Below, in pieces: positions 18,810 to 31,968 of a stretch of DNA of 36,223 nt. The stretch lies in UHGV virus genome UHGV-0136979. One strand, 5' to 3'. The notes beneath the pieces are model-generated. The model was given only the letters and a program-made list of their open reading frames with translations, searched no databases and had not been told where the DNA came from. How positions within the stretch are numbered: position 1 is the stretch's first letter; each line of letters opens with the position of its first letter. The translations under genes were made by a program, and so were the position numbers. This stretch comes from a virus.

Positions 18810-19610
18810 TTAACCGCGCTTCGCCTTCTGCGTCGCGGTGGTTTTTCGTGTTGCAGGCTTCCGCGTTGTCTTTTTACTTTTGCTGCTTTCGTCCTGCGCC
18901 TGCTGTGCGCTGGCGTCTTCTGGTGCGACTGCGGAATCGGCTTTTTTCAGGGCGCGGGAAAGGGTTGCAATCTCGCGTTTCACACCTGCGTTCGGGTTCA
19001 GGTGCATTGCTTCGCGCAGCAGCTTCAGTGATAAGGCCATGTTGTCTGCATCGCTCAGACCACGACGGGCAAAGGCGCATGCCTTGCATAATTTGGCGCG
19101 TACTTCGTCCGGCATGTCCTGGTCGGTGACAATCTCCCGGAGGGTGTCCAGTGGTTCGATAAAGGCGGACAAATCCGCGTCGGCATCCGTCCCGGCCTGC
19201 GTCAGCACTGGATTGCAGATTTCTTCGGTCAGCACTGTGGCAGCAGTACGGCCAAAGTTATCCGGCATGATGAGGTTGTGACGGACCACATACGCGCCGA
19301 TACGCAGCGCAAGCGGAAGATCGCCGCAGTCAATCGCCCACACCATCAGCGTGGCAATCACTTCATCCTGCTGCCCGCCGTCAGCCTCCAGTGTTCCCTC
19401 AATCCAGCCGGAAAAGTCCGGCAACAACTCTTTTTTGATGGCGGCTTTCGCGCTTCTGGCCTGTACGCCCTTAAGCCGGGCCTGTGCCAGACGCAGACGA
19501 TACAGCACCTCTTCATGCGCGGTACGCGCGGCGTGGTCCACGCCTTCATTTGCCCGGCCTGCGCGCTGTGCCATCACGTTCTGCCAGTGTTGCTGTGCAG
19601 GAGTAATCAT
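18810..19610 (-). CDS. M: terminase endonuclease subunit M
   Basis: 266 aa with a basic C-terminal tail; synteny O-N-M. Confidence 0.85.
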   Translation of the reverse strand: MITPAQQHWQNVMAQRAGRANEGVDHAARTAHEEVLYRLRLAQARLKGVQARSAKAAIKKELLPDFSGWIEGTLEADGGQQDEVIATLMVWAIDCGDLPLALRIGAYVVRHNLIMPDNFGRTAATVLTEEICNPVLTQAGTDADADLSAFIEPLDTLREIVTDQDMPDEVRAKLCKACAFARRGLSDADNMALSLKLLREAMHLNPNAGVKREIATLSRALKKADSAVAPEDASAQQAQDESSKSKKTTRKPATRKTTATQKAKRG

Positions 19611-21722: not shown

Positions 21723-23474
21723 ATGATTCAGGACGCTTTTGTGCGCCAGCGTGCGCGGCAACTTTACTGGCAGGGTTATCCGCCCGCAGAAATATCACGT
21801 CTGATGGGAATAAACCCGAACACGATTTATGCGTGGAAAAAACGCGACCAGTGGGATGAAACGCCACCCGTGCAGCGTGTCACGCAGTCCATTGATGCGC
21901 GCCTCATCCAGCTTACTGAAAAACAGAATAAAACAGGCGGTGACTTTAAGGAAATAGACCTGCTGACCCGGCAGCTTAAAAAGCTGCATGATGGCCAGCC
22001 GGATGTGATGGCCGCAGGAAAGAAAGGCCGGGCGAAAAAACTCAAAAATCATTTCACGCCGGAACAGATTGCCGCACTGCGGGAAAAAATCATCAGCAGG
22101 CTGGAGTGGCATCAGCGGGGCTGGTTTGACTCCCTGACCCTTTGCAGGGAAGCCGGGATACGTAACAGGATGATCCTGAAATCCCGACAGATTGGGGCGA
22201 CCTGGTATTTTGCACAGGAAGCACTGCTGATGGCGCTGCGTGACGATGTGGCGCAACCTTACCAGCGTAACCAGATTTTTTTGTCTGCGTCGCGTCGTCA
22301 GGCGTTCCAGTTTAAAAGCATTATTCAGAAGGCCGCGGCTGAAGTTGATGTGGAGCTGAAAGGGGGTGATAAAATCATCCTCTCCAACGGCGCAGAGCTG
22401 CATTTTCTCGGCACTTCTGCTGCGTCGGCACAGTCCTATACGGGCAATTTTTATTTTGATGAATTTTTCTGGGTCAGTCGCTTTGCTGAACTGCGCAAGG
22501 TGGCTGGCGCTATGGCAACCCTCAGCGGACTGCGGCGCACCTACTTCTCCACGCCATCCACCGAAACGCACGAGGCATACGCCTACTGGAACGGCGACCG
22601 CTGGAACGAGAAAAAGGCCTCGCATAAACGCCAGCGTTTTTCTGTGGACTGGAAAACGCTGCATAACGGACTTATCTGCCCTGACCGGACATGGCGGCAG
22701 ATTGTCACGCTGGAAGATGTGGTTAATCACGGCTGGAAACACACCGATATTGACGAAATCCGTGATGAAAACACCGAAGACGAGTTCCTCAATCTCTACA
22801 TGTGTGAGTTTGTCCGCGAAGGGGAATCGGCATTTAACCTGAATATCCTGATTGGCTGCGGCGTTGACGGATACGACGACTGGAAAGACTGGAAACCTTT
22901 TGCTCCCCGCCCGATGGGAAATCGTCCGGTATGGATTGGGTATGACGCAAACGGCAGCAGTGGCAACGGCGACAGCGGCGCTGTGTCCGTGGTGGTTCCT
23001 CCGGCTGTTCCTGGTGGCCGTTTTCGAACGGTGGAGACGCGACGCGTTCAGGGGCTGGAGTTTGAAGAACAGGCCAGAGTCATTGAAGAGTTCACGTGTC
23101 GCTACAACGTGGAACACATCGGTATTGATGTGACGGGCGGGAATGGGGAGGCTGTTTATCAGATAGTGAAACGGTTTTTCCCTGCTGCTATTCCGTACAC
23201 CTTCACGCTGTCATCAAAACGGTCGCTGGTACTGAAAATGCTGCAAATAATGCGTGCCGGGCGGTGGGAATACGATCGCGCCGAACGCGAGCTGGTCGCG
23301 GCCTTTAACGCCGTGCGTAAGGTGAAAACACCGGGCGGCTTTATCACTTACGAAACGGACCGCGCGAGGGGGATCAGCCACGGCGACCTTGCGTGGGCAA
23401 CCATGCTTGCTGTCATTAACGAACCGATTGGCGGCGAAGGAGAAAACGAGCGTTTCACGGTTATGGAGTTCTGA
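21723..23474 (+). CDS. P: terminase ATPase (large) subunit P
   Basis: 583 aa (P2 gpP is 590 aa); Walker-A-like KSRQIGATW; followed by the portal gene. Confidence 0.9.
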   Translation: MIQDAFVRQRARQLYWQGYPPAEISRLMGINPNTIYAWKKRDQWDETPPVQRVTQSIDARLIQLTEKQNKTGGDFKEIDLLTRQLKKLHDGQPDVMAAGKKGRAKKLKNHFTPEQIAALREKIISRLEWHQRGWFDSLTLCREAGIRNRMILKSRQIGATWYFAQEALLMALRDDVAQPYQRNQIFLSASRRQAFQFKSIIQKAAAEVDVELKGGDKIILSNGAELHFLGTSAASAQSYTGNFYFDEFFWVSRFAELRKVAGAMATLSGLRRTYFSTPSTETHEAYAYWNGDRWNEKKASHKRQRFSVDWKTLHNGLICPDRTWRQIVTLEDVVNHGWKHTDIDEIRDENTEDEFLNLYMCEFVREGESAFNLNILIGCGVDGYDDWKDWKPFAPRPMGNRPVWIGYDANGSSGNGDSGAVSVVVPPAVPGGRFRTVETRRVQGLEFEEQARVIEEFTCRYNVEHIGIDVTGGNGEAVYQIVKRFFPAAIPYTFTLSSKRSLVLKMLQIMRAGRWEYDRAERELVAAFNAVRKVKTPGGFITYETDRARGISHGDLAWATMLAVINEPIGGEGENERFTVMEF

Positions 23475-24520
23475 TGAGCAGAAAAAATAAAAAAGTGCGC
23501 ATGAGTTCACGCATTGATCTCGCTGATGCGCTCAGGAAAGAATCATCGCTCAGTGCATTCACATTTGATGGTCCTTATCGCCTGACCGGGCATGACCTGC
23601 TGGACAATATGTACTGTGCTGATAACGGGCGGTGGTATGAAACCCCGGTGGACTGGTACGGTCTGGCAAGAGCTGCCCGGCAAACGTCCTGGCATCAGTC
23701 TGCGCTTTACTTTAAGCGTAATGTATTGCTCGGCTGCTATATTCCGCATCCGCTGCTTTCCCGGCAGGATTTCTCGGCGCTGGCGCTGGACTGGTTTGTG
23801 TTCGGTAACGCATTCCTTGAGCTTCGGAGCAATATGCTCGGCGAACCGCTTAAATTACGGCACGCCCTGGCGAAATACATGCGACGCGGAAGCGATCTTG
23901 AATCATGGTGGTATGTGCAGGATGGCAAGGACGCGTTTCAGTTTCGCCCTGGCAAAGTGTGCCACCTGATGAATCCTGACATTAACCAGGAAATCTACGG
24001 CATGCCGGAATATCTCGGCGCATTACTCTCGGCCAGCCTGTCTCATTCGGCGGACATGTTCAGAAAACTGTATTACGACAACGGATCCCACGCCGGGTGT
24101 ATCATCTACATCGGTGCAGCGCAGGTAAACCGCGAAAGCATGGACTCCCTGAAAGAAACGCTACAGGGTGCACGTGGTGGTGGTGCGTTTAAAAACGTGC
24201 TCATTCATGCGCCCAACGGGGGCAAAGAAGGTGTGCAAATTTTGCCGTTCCAGCAGATCACCGCAAAGGATGAGTTCATGAATGTTAAGGCGGCATCCCG
24301 TGATGATGTGCTGGCTGCGCACCGCGTTCCGCCGCAACTGATGGGGGCGATGCCGGGTGAAAAAAGTGCGTTTGGTGATGTGGAAAAGGCCGCGCGGGTT
24401 TACGCAATTAACGAGCTGATGCCCGTTATGGAGGCCATGAAGCACATCAATGACTGGCTTGGCGAAGAGGTGATCCGTTTTAATTCTTATGCTCTTCTTG
24501 ATGAAAAAACAGCCCCGTGA
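23474..24520 (+). CDS. Q: portal protein Q
   Basis: 348 aa (P2 gpQ is 344 aa); start overlaps the P stop (ATGA). Confidence 0.9.
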   Translation: MSRKNKKVRMSSRIDLADALRKESSLSAFTFDGPYRLTGHDLLDNMYCADNGRWYETPVDWYGLARAARQTSWHQSALYFKRNVLLGCYIPHPLLSRQDFSALALDWFVFGNAFLELRSNMLGEPLKLRHALAKYMRRGSDLESWWYVQDGKDAFQFRPGKVCHLMNPDINQEIYGMPEYLGALLSASLSHSADMFRKLYYDNGSHAGCIIYIGAAQVNRESMDSLKETLQGARGGGAFKNVLIHAPNGGKEGVQILPFQQITAKDEFMNVKAASRDDVLAAHRVPPQLMGAMPGEKSAFGDVEKAARVYAINELMPVMEAMKHINDWLGEEVIRFNSYALLDEKTAP

Positions 24521-24535
24521 TGGGGCTGTCCTTTT
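24502..24535. terminator. bidirectional rho-independent terminator shared by Q and the convergent cargo ORF
   Basis: A6-ACAGCCCC (24508..24515), loop GTGAT, GGGGCTGT (24521..28)-CCTTTTT; the Q stop codon lies in the loop and the T-tract overlaps the 3' end of the convergent ORF. Confidence 0.7.
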
Positions 24536-25059
24536 TACCAGAGTTGAACCATTTTCTGGGTGCCGTCAGGCTTGAGATTATCAATTTCAGAGAGAACGTA
24601 ATATTGAATGGCTTCACAAACGGTGGTGTATGGTGAATTACCTTCTTTAAGTGGCACGATATTATTATTAACGCGAACCTGTATTTCATCGTTATACATT
24701 GCGATCGAAAGAGGAGTATGCACGAAGGCGACTTCGCCAGGTGTGTCGTCAACCACTGTCTCAATGCTGAAAATCAGTTTTCGCTCATCATTGCCGCCCC
24801 TTGCTTTGGGGGTAGCGGCAGGAATCTGAGATAAAGGCATTCTGCGAAACCCTTCAGCCGTTTCCAGTCCGCATGAAACGTAATGCTGGCGATTACCGTC
24901 GCTATCCGTCCATGTCTGTGATGGCAGCTCCAGAGAGATTTCATAAGCATCAACAATTCCCTGGGCAATGCGTACAAGCGGGGTCAGGTCTTCATTGCGG
25001 CGAAAACTCTCCTTTACCTGATCTCGTTTTTCTCGTAACTGCTTGTAATTAATGACCAT
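24535..25059 (-). CDS. hypothetical protein (cargo gene next to portal)
   Basis: Start at 25059 (MVINYKQLREKRDQ...) preceded by GGAGG; about 174 aa; no family recognised. The track ORF extends to 25098. Confidence 0.5.
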   Translation of the reverse strand: MVINYKQLREKRDQVKESFRRNEDLTPLVRIAQGIVDAYEISLELPSQTWTDSDGNRQHYVSCGLETAEGFRRMPLSQIPAATPKARGGNDERKLIFSIETVVDDTPGEVAFVHTPLSIAMYNDEIQVRVNNNIVPLKEGNSPYTTVCEAIQYYVLSEIDNLKPDGTQKMVQLW

Positions 25060-25161
25060 AGAACAGCCTCCATTGATTTCTTTGCTCGTATTTTGCACTT
25101 ATGAAGTGTGGTCGGCAAGGTGCCGCATCACTGACGCGCTTCGCTTGTCTGCTGCTTCGCC

Positions 25162-25184
25162 GGGGCATAAAAAATTTATGCCCC
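25162..25184. repeat. perfect palindrome GGGGCATAAA-AAA-TTTATGCCCC
   Basis: 10-bp arms with a 3-nt centre, in non-coding DNA; no adjacent U-tract on either strand, so not a canonical terminator. Confidence 0.6.
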
Positions 25185-25558
25185 GACTCTCCAGCTCCTG
25201 TATCAATCAGATAATTTCGCGACGTCTTCCGACTTATCGCTATCATCGACGGCCAGACTCTTACACAATCCCGCCGCGCTGACTGCATGTTCTCGCCGCC
25301 TCAGTGCGATTTTGACGGCCTTACCTTTCATCCCATCAAATCAGAACACCTTACGTCTTTTTCACGCTCAGCGTGAGCGATACAGCCATTTTGTTGTGTC
25401 GCTGCGACATCGTTCAGGGAATGCTATTTACCCCCTGAAACGCGGGCTGTTCCCCCGTCACCTGCGCGCAGAAAAAGCGTGTTTTTTTGTGCACGCACGG
25501 ATCCTTGGCGGATCCAGCCGCCACGCGGGCCGGAAGGGCAAAAAGTCGTTCAAAAAAA

Positions 25559-25585
25559 TTGTGCAAATTTGTGCACTATTGTGCA
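25559..25585. repeat. three tandem TTGTGCA repeats at exact 10-bp phasing
   Basis: TTGTGCA at 25559, 25569 and 25579, followed by an 8-bp-stem hairpin (25588..25611), just downstream of the operon stop at 25625. Confidence 0.6.
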
Positions 25586-25624
25586 GAAGGGCGATGTGCG
25601 ATTATCGCCCTGGTTTGAGGGGGA

Positions 25625-26215
25625 TCAGGTGTTATTTTTATCTGTCGTCAGTGGGCTAAACCATCCACAATTTACATCGCAGGACTGATGCGTTCTGTCC
25701 TCGTGTTTCTCCTGCCACAATGCTTTTCCGCCAGCCTTTATGATGGCTCTTTCAACATCCCGCTCGTATCGCAAGGGCTGAAATACGTCATTAATGAAAT
25801 ATTCGCTTATGTCCGGAAGCGATACTGCAAAATTATTTGTTTGTTGCGCCGTCCGGCTATGCAGCAAAGCGGCATACTTTAATGCGTCCTGTGCTTTCTG
25901 GAATTTAAGTGCATAGTCAGTGGCGATTTTTTCCAGTTCAGCGATTCGGTTGTCTTTGGTTTCCAGCCAATCAAGTAGCGCCAATACTTCAGGATCCCCG
26001 ACATCCAACACTGTTACGCGTGATTTTTCATAATGTTCGTCGGCAAGAGTTCGGCCAATTTTGAAATCTCCATCATCACCATAACCGGAGCAGGCATAAA
26101 CAACCTGTGCTCCAGATATTCGCTGAATTGACATTTCCTCGCCGCAAATAGGGCATTTCGGTACTGGCGCAGGTGAATAACGTTCGCGTAATGCCTGATA
26201 GTCAATCTTGCTCAC
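25625..26215 (-). CDS. hypothetical protein with N-terminal zinc-ribbon-like motif
   Basis: 196 aa; GTG start overlapping the upstream stop (GTGA) with AGGAGG upstream; CPICGEEM-x14-YACSGYG motif; last gene of the parM-led operon. Confidence 0.55.
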   Translation of the reverse strand: MSKIDYQALRERYSPAPVPKCPICGEEMSIQRISGAQVVYACSGYGDDGDFKIGRTLADEHYEKSRVTVLDVGDPEVLALLDWLETKDNRIAELEKIATDYALKFQKAQDALKYAALLHSRTAQQTNNFAVSLPDISEYFINDVFQPLRYERDVERAIIKAGGKALWQEKHEDRTHQSCDVNCGWFSPLTTDKNNT

Positions 26216-26796: not shown

Positions 26797-27108
26797 TCAT
26801 TCAGGAAATAATGCCCGGATATTCCCTGCTATCTGACTGGTTATCTGTGCGGTTGGTACTGGCTGTGACACGGGGCGTTCTGTCCTGGTTTGTGTCACCG
26901 ATAACGCCTCATCGTCAGCCCATGCAGCCAGTCGGTAAGCCTCTGCTGGATTCATTTTCAGAAGTGCCAGCCCGGCCAGAAAAGCCACGCGTTGGCCGCT
27001 TTTGCGGGCTTCTGGTGTAAGGCTGTCCAGCCAGGCGCATGCTTCGCCTTCGTTCTTGACGGCGGCGGGCTTCAGATAGAAACTTATCCGTCTGGTTGGA
27101 GTCGTCAT
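26797..27108 (-). CDS. parR: ParR-like ribbon-helix-helix adaptor
   Basis: Start at 27108, 5 nt after the ParM stop, with AAGGAG upstream; 103 aa; RRISFYLKP...LAGLALL and C-terminal IRALFPE resemble plasmid R1 ParR as I recall it. The track ORF 26797..27243 is an upstream over-extension. Confidence 0.6.
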   Translation of the reverse strand: MTTPTRRISFYLKPAAVKNEGEACAWLDSLTPEARKSGQRVAFLAGLALLKMNPAEAYRLAAWADDEALSVTQTRTERPVSQPVPTAQITSQIAGNIRALFPE

Positions 27109-27112
27109 TGGT

Positions 27113-28072
27113 TTACTCCTTGTCCATTGCGTACAGCCCATTAACCAGAGCAAACTGTGGCACCCCGTCCGCGATGAAAGTCGCATTAACTCCGCAGGCT
27201 TCGCGGATAGCGGGTGCCACAATCTCCGCCCCGCCACCGACAACCATCACCCGCCCGTAACCCGAAAAACCCGCCAGCGCGCGGATCACGCGTTGTTTCA
27301 GTGTTTCTTCCTTTTCACGAATAACCGCCATCAGGTTGGCGTAATGCGCGTCATTGTGGATGTGCTGGCGCAGCCAGGCTTCATCATGGCGATGTTCGAT
27401 AATGGTATTGGCGATGTGGTGACTGGTGCGCATACCGTTAGTGGCCATCACCGACAGTACGGCATCGGCCATCAGAGAAACGCCTACGTGTGGATCGCAA
27501 AACACCTGGCTGATACCTGCCAGTTGCCCCTGAACCTTTGCCACATCCAGCGTGGTTCCGCCCAAATCCACAATCAGCAGGGATTCAAACGGACTCATGT
27601 CAGCCAGTGCTTTAAAGCCAGCCGGAATGGATTCAGGCATAACCCGTACGTTACGGATAGTGAATGCTTCGCCGTTCTGGTACTCCACCGGGCGCATAAC
27701 GTTCGCTTTTTTGCGGCTGATGTTAGCCATGTCCGGCTGTGCGTTTGTGTCGAAATACTCGCTCAGTGGCAGGGTGACAACCACATCCACCTCCTGTGGC
27801 GTGATGCCTGATTTGACCAGCGCGTGATGAATGGCAATGACATTCACATCGCTGTACTGGTATTGCGTGTCGGTCGTCTGGACAAAGCGATCGCTGACCG
27901 GATCAAAACCATAGCGCACGCCATCAAGCATGTAGTTCGCGGGCTGCGTACCACCGAACGGCGCAGACCATTCCGACTTGAAGCTGTTCGGGCTGATGGC
28001 GTTGCGGCGTTCGCCGTTCTCAGTCCATGCCAGCTTGATGTTGGTGGAACCGTCGTCGATACAAATTTTCAT
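27113..28072 (-). CDS. parM: ParM/StbA-family actin-like ATPase
   Basis: 319 aa; MKICIDDGSTNIKLAW (phosphate-1), LIVDLGGTTLDV (phosphate-2) and VMVVGGGAEIV (adenosine) motifs; near-collinear resemblance to plasmid R1 ParM from memory. Confidence 0.85.
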   Translation of the reverse strand: MKICIDDGSTNIKLAWTENGERRNAISPNSFKSEWSAPFGGTQPANYMLDGVRYGFDPVSDRFVQTTDTQYQYSDVNVIAIHHALVKSGITPQEVDVVVTLPLSEYFDTNAQPDMANISRKKANVMRPVEYQNGEAFTIRNVRVMPESIPAGFKALADMSPFESLLIVDLGGTTLDVAKVQGQLAGISQVFCDPHVGVSLMADAVLSVMATNGMRTSHHIANTIIEHRHDEAWLRQHIHNDAHYANLMAVIREKEETLKQRVIRALAGFSGYGRVMVVGGGAEIVAPAIREACGVNATFIADGVPQFALVNGLYAMDKE

Positions 28073-28100: not shown

Positions 28101-28216
28101 TCGTTTACGGGATTCTGAAATCCCGTTTTTGCCTGTTTTGTGCGCGCTTCATATATCGCTGCGCGTTTTTTGCTCATTTACGGGATTCGTGAGTCCCGTT
28201 TCTGTCTGTTTTTTGT
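28101..28216. repeat. two copies of a 40-bp hairpin-plus-T-tract repeat, about 73 bp apart, straddling the A stop
   Basis: Copy 1 (about 28104..28140): TTTACGGGATTCTGAAATCCCGTTTTTGCCTGTTTTG; copy 2 (about 28177..28216): TTTACGGGATTCGTGAGTCCCGTTTCTGTCTGTTTTTTG, inside the 3' end of A. The T-tracts are on the + strand although both flanking genes are on the - strand. Confidence 0.65.
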
Positions 28217-31691: not shown

Positions 31692-31877
31692 GTTGAGAAT
31701 CTCGGGGTGGCGAGACGTACAGGGTTCTCAACACCGGAGAGCAAAGAATCCGGCCCGACCGAAGTCGGCCCCGTACGCCCCGCCATAATTCTGACGCGAA
31801 AAAGACGTGGCAATACAGTACGCACAAAAAAACCGCTTGCGCGGTTATGCGCTTTGCTCTGTATCGGGTTGAGAATC
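31692..31877. repeat. three copies of GTTGAGAA(T/C)C (two direct, one inverted) in a 320-bp non-coding early-region segment
   Basis: GTTGAGAATC at 31692..31701 and 31868..31877; inverted copy GTTCTCAAC at 31724..31732. Confidence 0.55.
31824..31846 (-). terminator. rho-independent terminator on the - strand within the early region
   Basis: On the - strand: AACCGC-GCAA-GCGGTT followed by TTTTTTTGTG. Confidence 0.55.
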
Positions 31878-31968
31878 CCGGCACCAGTTTTATGAGGTGC
31901 AGCGGAAATGTAACCTGACCGATTGAGGCATGGCAAGCGGTTTTTTTGTGTGTGCATGTTCTGGTTTC

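Follow-up and report, generated by a model that had tools for sequence, protein, structure and literature searches.

Phages P2 and 186 and the satellite P4 carry cos sites with 19-nt 5′ cohesive ends and a shared 55-bp core (Ziermann & Calendar 1990, cited in PMC9122126 and PMC5694545). This site is the sole homology between P4 and P2 (PMC9122126), and P2-type phages can package monomeric circles, as described for P4 (PMC2231350). In P2-like phages, the region that separates cos from the portal gene is recognized as a hotspot of insertion (PMC5694545, citing Dodd & Egan 1996 and Nakayama 1999). When the P2 and 186 sequences were inspected here, cos was located 170 to 190 bp past the portal stop codon, after a terminator.

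We analyzed a 36,223-nt stretch of viral DNA (hereafter, the window) in which a block at positions 25060–25624 had been singled out as a repeat-rich non-coding region that might hold a cos site, a centromere, or an RNA gene. Nucleotide searches assign the window to a P88-like prophage (Xuanwuvirus, P2 family, Peduoviridae), and the gene order near the block is the P2-family order in reverse (Table 1). The block matched 1,146 of 5,426 complete Escherichia coli genomes, i.e., about a fifth. Since the left cargo gene starts with the codon at 25059–25057, the block begins directly after a gene; the right neighbor ends at 25625. All features listed in the original prediction were found in the sequence, including the dyads TCACGCT/AGCGTGA (25362–25376), TGTCGC-T-GCGACA (25398–25410), and TGGCGG-N6-CCGCCA (25506–25523). 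Judged from homology edges, the block is a composite of a cargo leader, a hairpin, a lineage-specific spacer, a conserved core, and a right-hand cargo hairpin. Elsewhere, in the early region of the window, Rfam matches at gathering score were obtained for C4 antisense RNA (31703–31790, minus strand, 78.5 bits) and, adjoining it, isrK (31826–31900, minus strand, 59.8 bits).

Table 1. Features of the block and its surroundings (window coordinates unless a locus is named).
Feature	Position	Strand	Remarks
Small terminase, gpM-like	18810–19610	−	Pfam Phage_term_smal
Capsid and scaffold genes	between small and large terminase in gene order	−	
Large terminase, gpP-like	21723–23474	+	
Portal	23474–24520	+	
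Terminator-like hairpin, bidirectional, shared by cargo gene and portal	24509–24529		overlaps portal stop
Inserted cargo gene, 174 aa	24535–25059	−	RefSeq annotation of a 99% identical locus
Cargo gene leader and probable promoter	25060–25125	−	RBS GGAGG 25071–25067; part of insertion
11-bp-arm palindrome	25161–25185		hairpin after portal stop in P88; position of tQ (P2) and tW (186)
Non-coding spacer particular to the E. coli P88 lineage	25186–25425		small palindromes 25362–25376, 25398–25410, 25413–25439
Probable cos core, P88-type packaging signal	25426–25586	−	same orientation as P2 top strand
Predicted cosN	25444–25464	−	19-mer GGTGACGGGGGAACAGCCC (25462→25444), predicted 5′ cohesive end
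Fourth TTGTGCA (TGCACAA on −)	25487–25493	−	exactly 72 nt from third copy
Spacer of fixed length and variable sequence	25494–25558		GGATCC repeats, TGGCGG/CCGCCA dyad, A7 tract 25552–25558
Three TTGTGCA repeats, 10-bp phasing	25559–25585	−	outer edge of probable cos; counterpart of three TGCAT in P2/186/P4
Hairpin AGGGCGAT/ATCGCCCT	25588–25611	−	variable right cargo module, just downstream of ead/Ea22-like gene
ead/Ea22-like gene	25625–26215	−	Pfam Ead_Ea22
Two ead/Ea22-like genes (the preceding one included), ParR-like gene, ParM, replication endonuclease	beyond the block	− (all)	
P4-like satellite	L123 1–12700; L303 6100–18700 (E. coli NZ_CP033635.1); L106		

The conserved core in the right-hand part of the block has sharp boundaries. 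Its right homology edge fell at 25584 to 25588 in 127 of 155 loci (161 viral loci minus those cut by the locus end), and among the matches listed for the 1,147 E. coli records, most ended at 25585 or 25586. Past 25586, diversity climbed from pi 0.02 to 0.47–0.65. The left homology edge was at 25123/25131 in P88-like loci and at 25431 to 25450 in 28 loci of other lineages. Positions 25441–25585 were recovered at 70 to 78% identity between unrelated flanks in 12 species-genome matches from at least seven other named genera, and also in Enterobacter phage phiT5282H (Novemvirus), where the flanks are likewise unrelated. Copies were found in Citrobacter, Pantoea, Mixta, Kluyvera, Erwinia, Enterobacter, and Apirhabdus; overall, prophages from at least eight genera of enterobacteria contain the core, and both flanks change. 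One locus (L240, NZ_JBQPOM010000071.1) from a Firmicute-labelled assembly, Vagococcus sp. WN89Y, contains an E. coli-type core with 95% identity, which likely reflects assembly contamination or mislabelling.

The cross-genus alignment contains three nearly invariant stretches: CTGTTCCCCCGTCACCTGCGCGC (25447–25469), TTTTTGTGCA (25484–25493), and TCAAAAAAATTGTGCAAATTTGTGCACTATTGTGCA (25550–25585). Between the second and the third, ~55 nt vary in sequence and are constant in length. The cross-genus loci were retrieved by patterns located inside the core, and the pattern bases are therefore conserved in part because they were searched for; the first invariant stretch, the bases that the patterns left unspecified, and the constant spacing are unaffected by this bias. 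When species genomes were scanned with a degenerate pattern, just 13 of the 120 matches were true cores, and most matches were unrelated sequences such as a Bryobacteraceae repeat.

The core co-varies with terminase type. The window and phiT5282H, which share the core, have large and small terminase subunits (TerL and TerS) that are 78 and 57% identical, respectively. The corresponding values are 47 and 40% for the window and P2, whose cos sequence differs, and 88 and 70% for P2 and 186, whose cos sequences are nearly identical. The core is also shared with a ~12-kb P4-like satellite located by tRNA-Arg, where it has identical internal spacing. This satellite encodes an integrase, an AlpA-type HTH regulator, an Icd-like protein, a toprim primase, a second integrase, an Ogr/Delta zinc finger protein, and MazEF, as well as a P2-family major capsid protein (423 aa) and a 236-aa coiled-coil protein; it has neither a portal nor a terminase. 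Fifty-five complete E. coli genomes contain it; of the 12 that were listed, 11 carry an additional copy of the queried stretch.

The three TTGTGCA repeats that had been described at exact 10-bp phasing are indeed present, at 25559, 25569, and 25579, and a fourth copy, at 25487, had been missed. There are five copies of TTGTGCA in the 36-kb window, four of them on the same strand within 99 bp. The array is nearly invariant across genera, including bases free of the search pattern, and homology to all relatives ceases directly after the third repeat. The 72-nt spacing between the third and the fourth copy was also found in P2, 186, P4, phiT5282H, and 24 metagenomic copies. The spacer in between contains a semi-conserved GGGCNGGANGGG(C/T)A at 25527–25540; in the satellite locus L123, its sequence differs and the spacing is kept.

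The layout itself was compared using the degenerate unit TGCAY. In P2, 186, and P4, exactly four such units are found within 180 nt to the right of the nick; with the third set to 0, they lie at −22/−23, −10, 0, and +72. On the minus strands of the window and of phiT5282H, four units are located at −20, −10, 0, and +72. The pattern TGCAY-N5-TGCAY-N67-TGCAY occurs once in the window versus 0.01 expected from shuffles. The five-element pattern TGCAY-N5..8-TGCAY-N5-TGCAY-N67-TGCAY-N24..26-GGYGA, in which three units and a fourth at +72 are followed by a G-rich end, occurs a single time in each of three sequences: P2, where it ends on cos nucleotides 1 to 5, the window (25585→25458), and phiT5282H. 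Its span is 128 nt in all three. This TGCAY layout was derived here from the sequences and is not confirmed as a published defining feature of P2-family cos sites. In Klebsiella Reipivirus phages (ST16-OXA48phi5.4, L301 1890–2030; L302), TGCAC is followed by GGTGACGGGGGG 31 nt further on, as in the window; their outer repeats are degenerate, in that TGCAC and TGCAA are separated by 11 nt and a third copy is not clearly recognizable.

Phased short repeats in direct orientation close to parMR genes are reminiscent of the parC centromere of plasmid R1, and binding of a ParR-type protein to 25559–25585 had been proposed. According to this reading, the TTGTGCA repeats would be a parC-type centromere for the ParR-like protein encoded 1.2 kb away and would serve plasmid-style segregation of the phage; the 10-bp phasing and the proximity of ParM (27113–28072) and of a Plasmid_stab_B/ParR-like gene (about 26797–27135) speak for it. 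However, the array is intact in phiT5282H, a 32-kb genome without annotated ParM or ParR, and therefore TTGTGCA should not be regarded as a ParR centromere. It is also intact in the P4-like satellite, which lacks annotated parMR, and an equivalent TGCAT array is found at the cos sites of P2, 186, and P4, with no ParMR annotated where checked. An R1-type parC is located upstream of parM. The array here is misplaced by comparison, being 1.2 kb downstream of parR and not upstream of parM, and contains only 3 + 1 copies; iterons directly upstream of parM and co-inherited with parMR, as in R1, are not what the array represents. A more plausible candidate for a ParR-binding centromere is the inverted repeat TTTACGGGATTC-N-ATCCCGTTT, two copies of which (28104–28131 and 28178–28205) occur shortly upstream of parM, overlapping the replication endonuclease gene at its 3′ end. 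We consider a centromere role of the TTGTGCA array extremely improbable.

Repeated short sites in helical phase are also typical of regulator binding, and GTGCAC is palindromic. The core could then be a transcriptional control region whose TTGTGCA units act as operators or activator sites for cargo or late genes. Yet, the array stays invariant among relatives that differ in the content and orientation of the genes on its right. Neither a promoter-like site nor a match to the Ogr/B activator sites (TGT-N12-ACA) was found in the core. Regulation of these genes would explain neither the retention of the element in a satellite that lacks them nor its equivalence with the P2/186/P4 cos, and we judge such a function very unlikely. 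The distribution and layout of the TTGTGCA array are better explained if the repeats are part of a cos site, where they probably are the recognition sites of the small terminase subunit.

If the core is a cos site, its spacing allows the position of the cohesive end to be predicted (Table 1). In the chosen register, GGTGACGGGGGAACAGCCC is identical to the P2 cohesive end at 13 of 19 positions. A match of 13/19 or better is reached at 7 of ~72,000 window positions, one of which fits the place predicted from spacing. Anchoring on the fourth repeat alone yields a 10/19 match to the P2 end, and 13/19 requires a 2-nt shift; the predicted nick positions are therefore uncertain by ~2 nt, and the 19-nt length of the overhang is assumed. 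The predicted cosN lies within the longest nearly invariant cross-genus stretch that is free of search patterns and has a diversity of pi 0.002. Its GGTGA start follows the first TGCA by 123 nt and the fourth by 31 nt; in P2, these distances are 123 and 29 nt. The mapped end of phiRSA1 begins with GGTGA as well (PMC5694545).

No similarity to the 55-bp core of P2, P4, and 186 was found beyond this 13/19 in-place match. A blastn comparison with the P2 and 186 cos junctions returned nothing significant, and an nhmmer search of the whole P2 genome with the core profile gave no match at the cos junction. The original prediction had reported that the P2/186 19-mer could not be matched convincingly by eye; in agreement with this, it has no match in the window at ≤3 mismatches, and no P2/186-type cos was found elsewhere in the window. 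Thus, the proposed alignment to the P2 and 186 cos regions failed at the level of sequence and succeeded at the level of the shared repeat layout. A first weak lead, GCGTGGCGG at 25518–25526, was dropped as this segment is variable across genera.

A search for physical ends of the DNA revealed none: the 24 metagenomic copies read through the site without exception, as did every viral contig (IMG/VR loci). Contig ends near 25430 and 25586 are consistent with assemblies breaking where a repeat common to co-resident elements begins or stops. The linear record of P88_4B11 (NC_049391.1/LR595891.1) has its nt 1 at window position 25540/25541, 78 nt from the predicted nick; since the authors set nt 1 “relative to reference genomes” (PMC6969025), we ruled out this start as a physical end. 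No paper mapping a P88-type cos was found in the literature. A cos feature is annotated in none of the records inspected, and P88 and the RefSeq copy have small hypothetical ORFs called at this place.

Overall, the synteny, the sharp conservation, the tracking of terminase type, the presence in a satellite, the shared layout, the predicted 19-mer, and the lack of any other candidate lead us to conclude that the right-hand ~160 bp (25426–25586) are very probably the cos site of this P88-like, P2-family prophage. The cos option of the original prediction thus stands for this segment and falls for the rest of the block. Its location was also anticipated correctly: in the window, as well as in P88, phiT5282H, and Klebsiella Reipivirus, the core is found between the end of the portal gene with its terminator and the accessory or replication genes. 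In the mechanism that we propose by analogy with P2, the terminase, composed of a gpM-like small and a gpP-like large subunit, would recognize the core after excision and replication of the prophage. Recognition would occur via the four same-strand TGCA repeats, the three outer ones at 10-bp phasing and the fourth 72 bp inward. Staggered nicks would then be introduced in the invariant G-rich segment ~30 nt past the fourth repeat, leaving the 5′ overhang GGTGACGGGGGAACAGCCC, and the DNA would be threaded through the portal. The remaining parts of the block (the cargo leader, the operon-end hairpin, the lineage spacer, and the terminator of the right cargo) would be mere context.

The left part of the block is shaped by an insertion. 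The 174-aa cargo gene is missing from P88; it sits between portal and cos, is convergent on the portal gene, and encodes a product without a match in Pfam or PADLOC. It had seemed puzzling that cos was expected in this part of the prophage and yet the portal gene abuts a convergent cargo gene. The puzzle is resolved by the fact that a cargo gene with its own terminator has been inserted between portal and cos. Homology to P88-like phages restarts at 25123–25131 in 102 of 161 loci, and about a dozen bases at 25123–25135 resemble the 3′ end of the P88 portal gene. The cargo module (24490–25135) replaces the final ~10 portal codons and supplies its own bidirectional terminator. A promoter scan of the cargo leader returned nothing above threshold, and the promoter listed in Table 1 is one that we infer.

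An alignment that includes Chuche shows that the conserved block of P88 sets in at the portal stop codon and opens with a hairpin. In the window, this hairpin corresponds to the palindrome described in the original prediction, which is perfect as stated but has arms of 11 rather than 10 nt (25161–25171 and 25175–25185) around a 3-nt loop. Diversity around it is very low (pi 0.003 to 0.028 over 25140–25219 in 103 relatives). The palindrome probably ends the late terminase-portal operon, a role that we infer since it is a hairpin without a T-run. At the opposite end of the block, the reported hairpin AGGGCGAT/ATCGCCCT is present at 25588–25611. This hairpin is probably the terminator of the leftward ead-like unit and, judged by its position past the homology edge, belongs outside cos.

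Between the palindrome and the core, the spacer 25186–25425 is replaced in other lineages by ~250 nt of unrelated sequence and shows no conservation with phiT5282H. Within it, the 20-nt bin 25300–25319 is nearly invariant among 103 relatives. The statement that the block has no credible ORF was borne out by the substitution pattern and by disruption of a 42-aa ORF (25203–25331, minus strand), which is annotated in both the RefSeq and P88 records. The variable sites of this ORF are distributed 18/15/11 over codon positions 1/2/3, i.e., there is no third-position excess; the reading frame is interrupted in 14 of 103 close relatives, and 39 distinct proteins would be encoded. On the grounds of substitution pattern and frequent disruption, both this ORF and a 50-aa ORF were ruled out as genes.

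A sequence that is kept in P88-like prophages yet is not coding-like might instead specify a structured non-coding RNA, transcribed from the minus strand of 25186–25425 and acting as a regulator or as a cargo-gene leader. The fold z-score of 25126–25440 was −5.3 on the minus strand (−119 versus −93 kcal/mol) and −3.4 on the plus strand. However, the low energy of the spacer stems from short perfect palindromes with 1-nt centers, which are better suited to protein binding or DNA structure than to hairpins in RNA. Compensatory changes were observed at just four to five pairs, a number equaled by a slid control. No Rfam 15 family matched within 25000–25700 at gathering score or at E ≤ 1, no promoter was found for such an RNA, and sister lineages carry unrelated sequence in its place. 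The RNA-gene option thus gained little support from the Rfam search and the weak covariation, and we consider it improbable.

The core is a lineage-specific version of a well-known element, and a P2 specialist would expect it here. The annotation of P88-like records would be corrected by marking 25426–25586 as cos and adding the predicted cohesive end. The core is a fixed point flanked on either side by a hotspot of cargo-gene insertion, and the P88-type cos provides a handle for helper-satellite pairing, with one satellite family carrying it in 55 genomes. Two broader propositions were also considered: that the four-site TGCA/72-bp layout is a conserved small-terminase code of the P2 family, or that 25186–25425 encodes a previously undescribed structured RNA particular to P88-like phages. 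That one or the other is correct seems to us possible but rather doubtful. A four-site code, if it exists, would have outlasted divergence of the surrounding sequence beyond detectable homology, and the repeat unit alone could then suffice to predict cos sites and helper-satellite pairings throughout Peduoviridae. Most worth following are the four-repeat geometry that recurs in P2, 186, and P4, and the P4-like satellite; the latter, which has its own P2-type capsid gene but borrows portal and terminase, may merit separate study.

Among known packaging systems, the cos site of phage lambda (cosQ-cosN-cosB) serves as a working analogy. There, phased R sites located by the nicking site are bound by the small terminase gpNu1; in contrast to the core described here, lambda has an unrelated sequence and terminase family, 12-nt ends, and a concatemer as the packaging substrate. 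The cos of Ralstonia phage phiRSA1 is closer. Its mapped end, 5′-GGTGAGGCGGGGTCCAAC, has GGTGA and a G run like the predicted GGTGACGGGGG, and cargo genes are located between cos and the portal homologue (PMC5694545). phiRSA1 belongs to a different host clade, however, and the match is limited to the first 5 nt and the G run.

The closest counterparts are the cos sites of P2, 186, and P4. They differ from the P88-type core in having no detectable sequence homology to it, so that the likeness is one of layout and not of alignable sequence. Their repeat unit is TGCAT, compared to TTGTGCA here; the distance from the core to the portal stop is ~330 nt in P88 versus ~170 nt in P2; and the terminase proteins of the window are just 40 to 47% identical to those of P2. 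As in P2 and its relatives, the P88-type core lies beyond the portal gene and a terminator, borders an accessory-gene hotspot, and combines three TGCA repeats with a fourth 72 nt off and a GGYGA G-rich segment 123 nt from the first. Finally, P4 shares its cos with the helper P2, and the satellite described here likewise shares the P88-type core.
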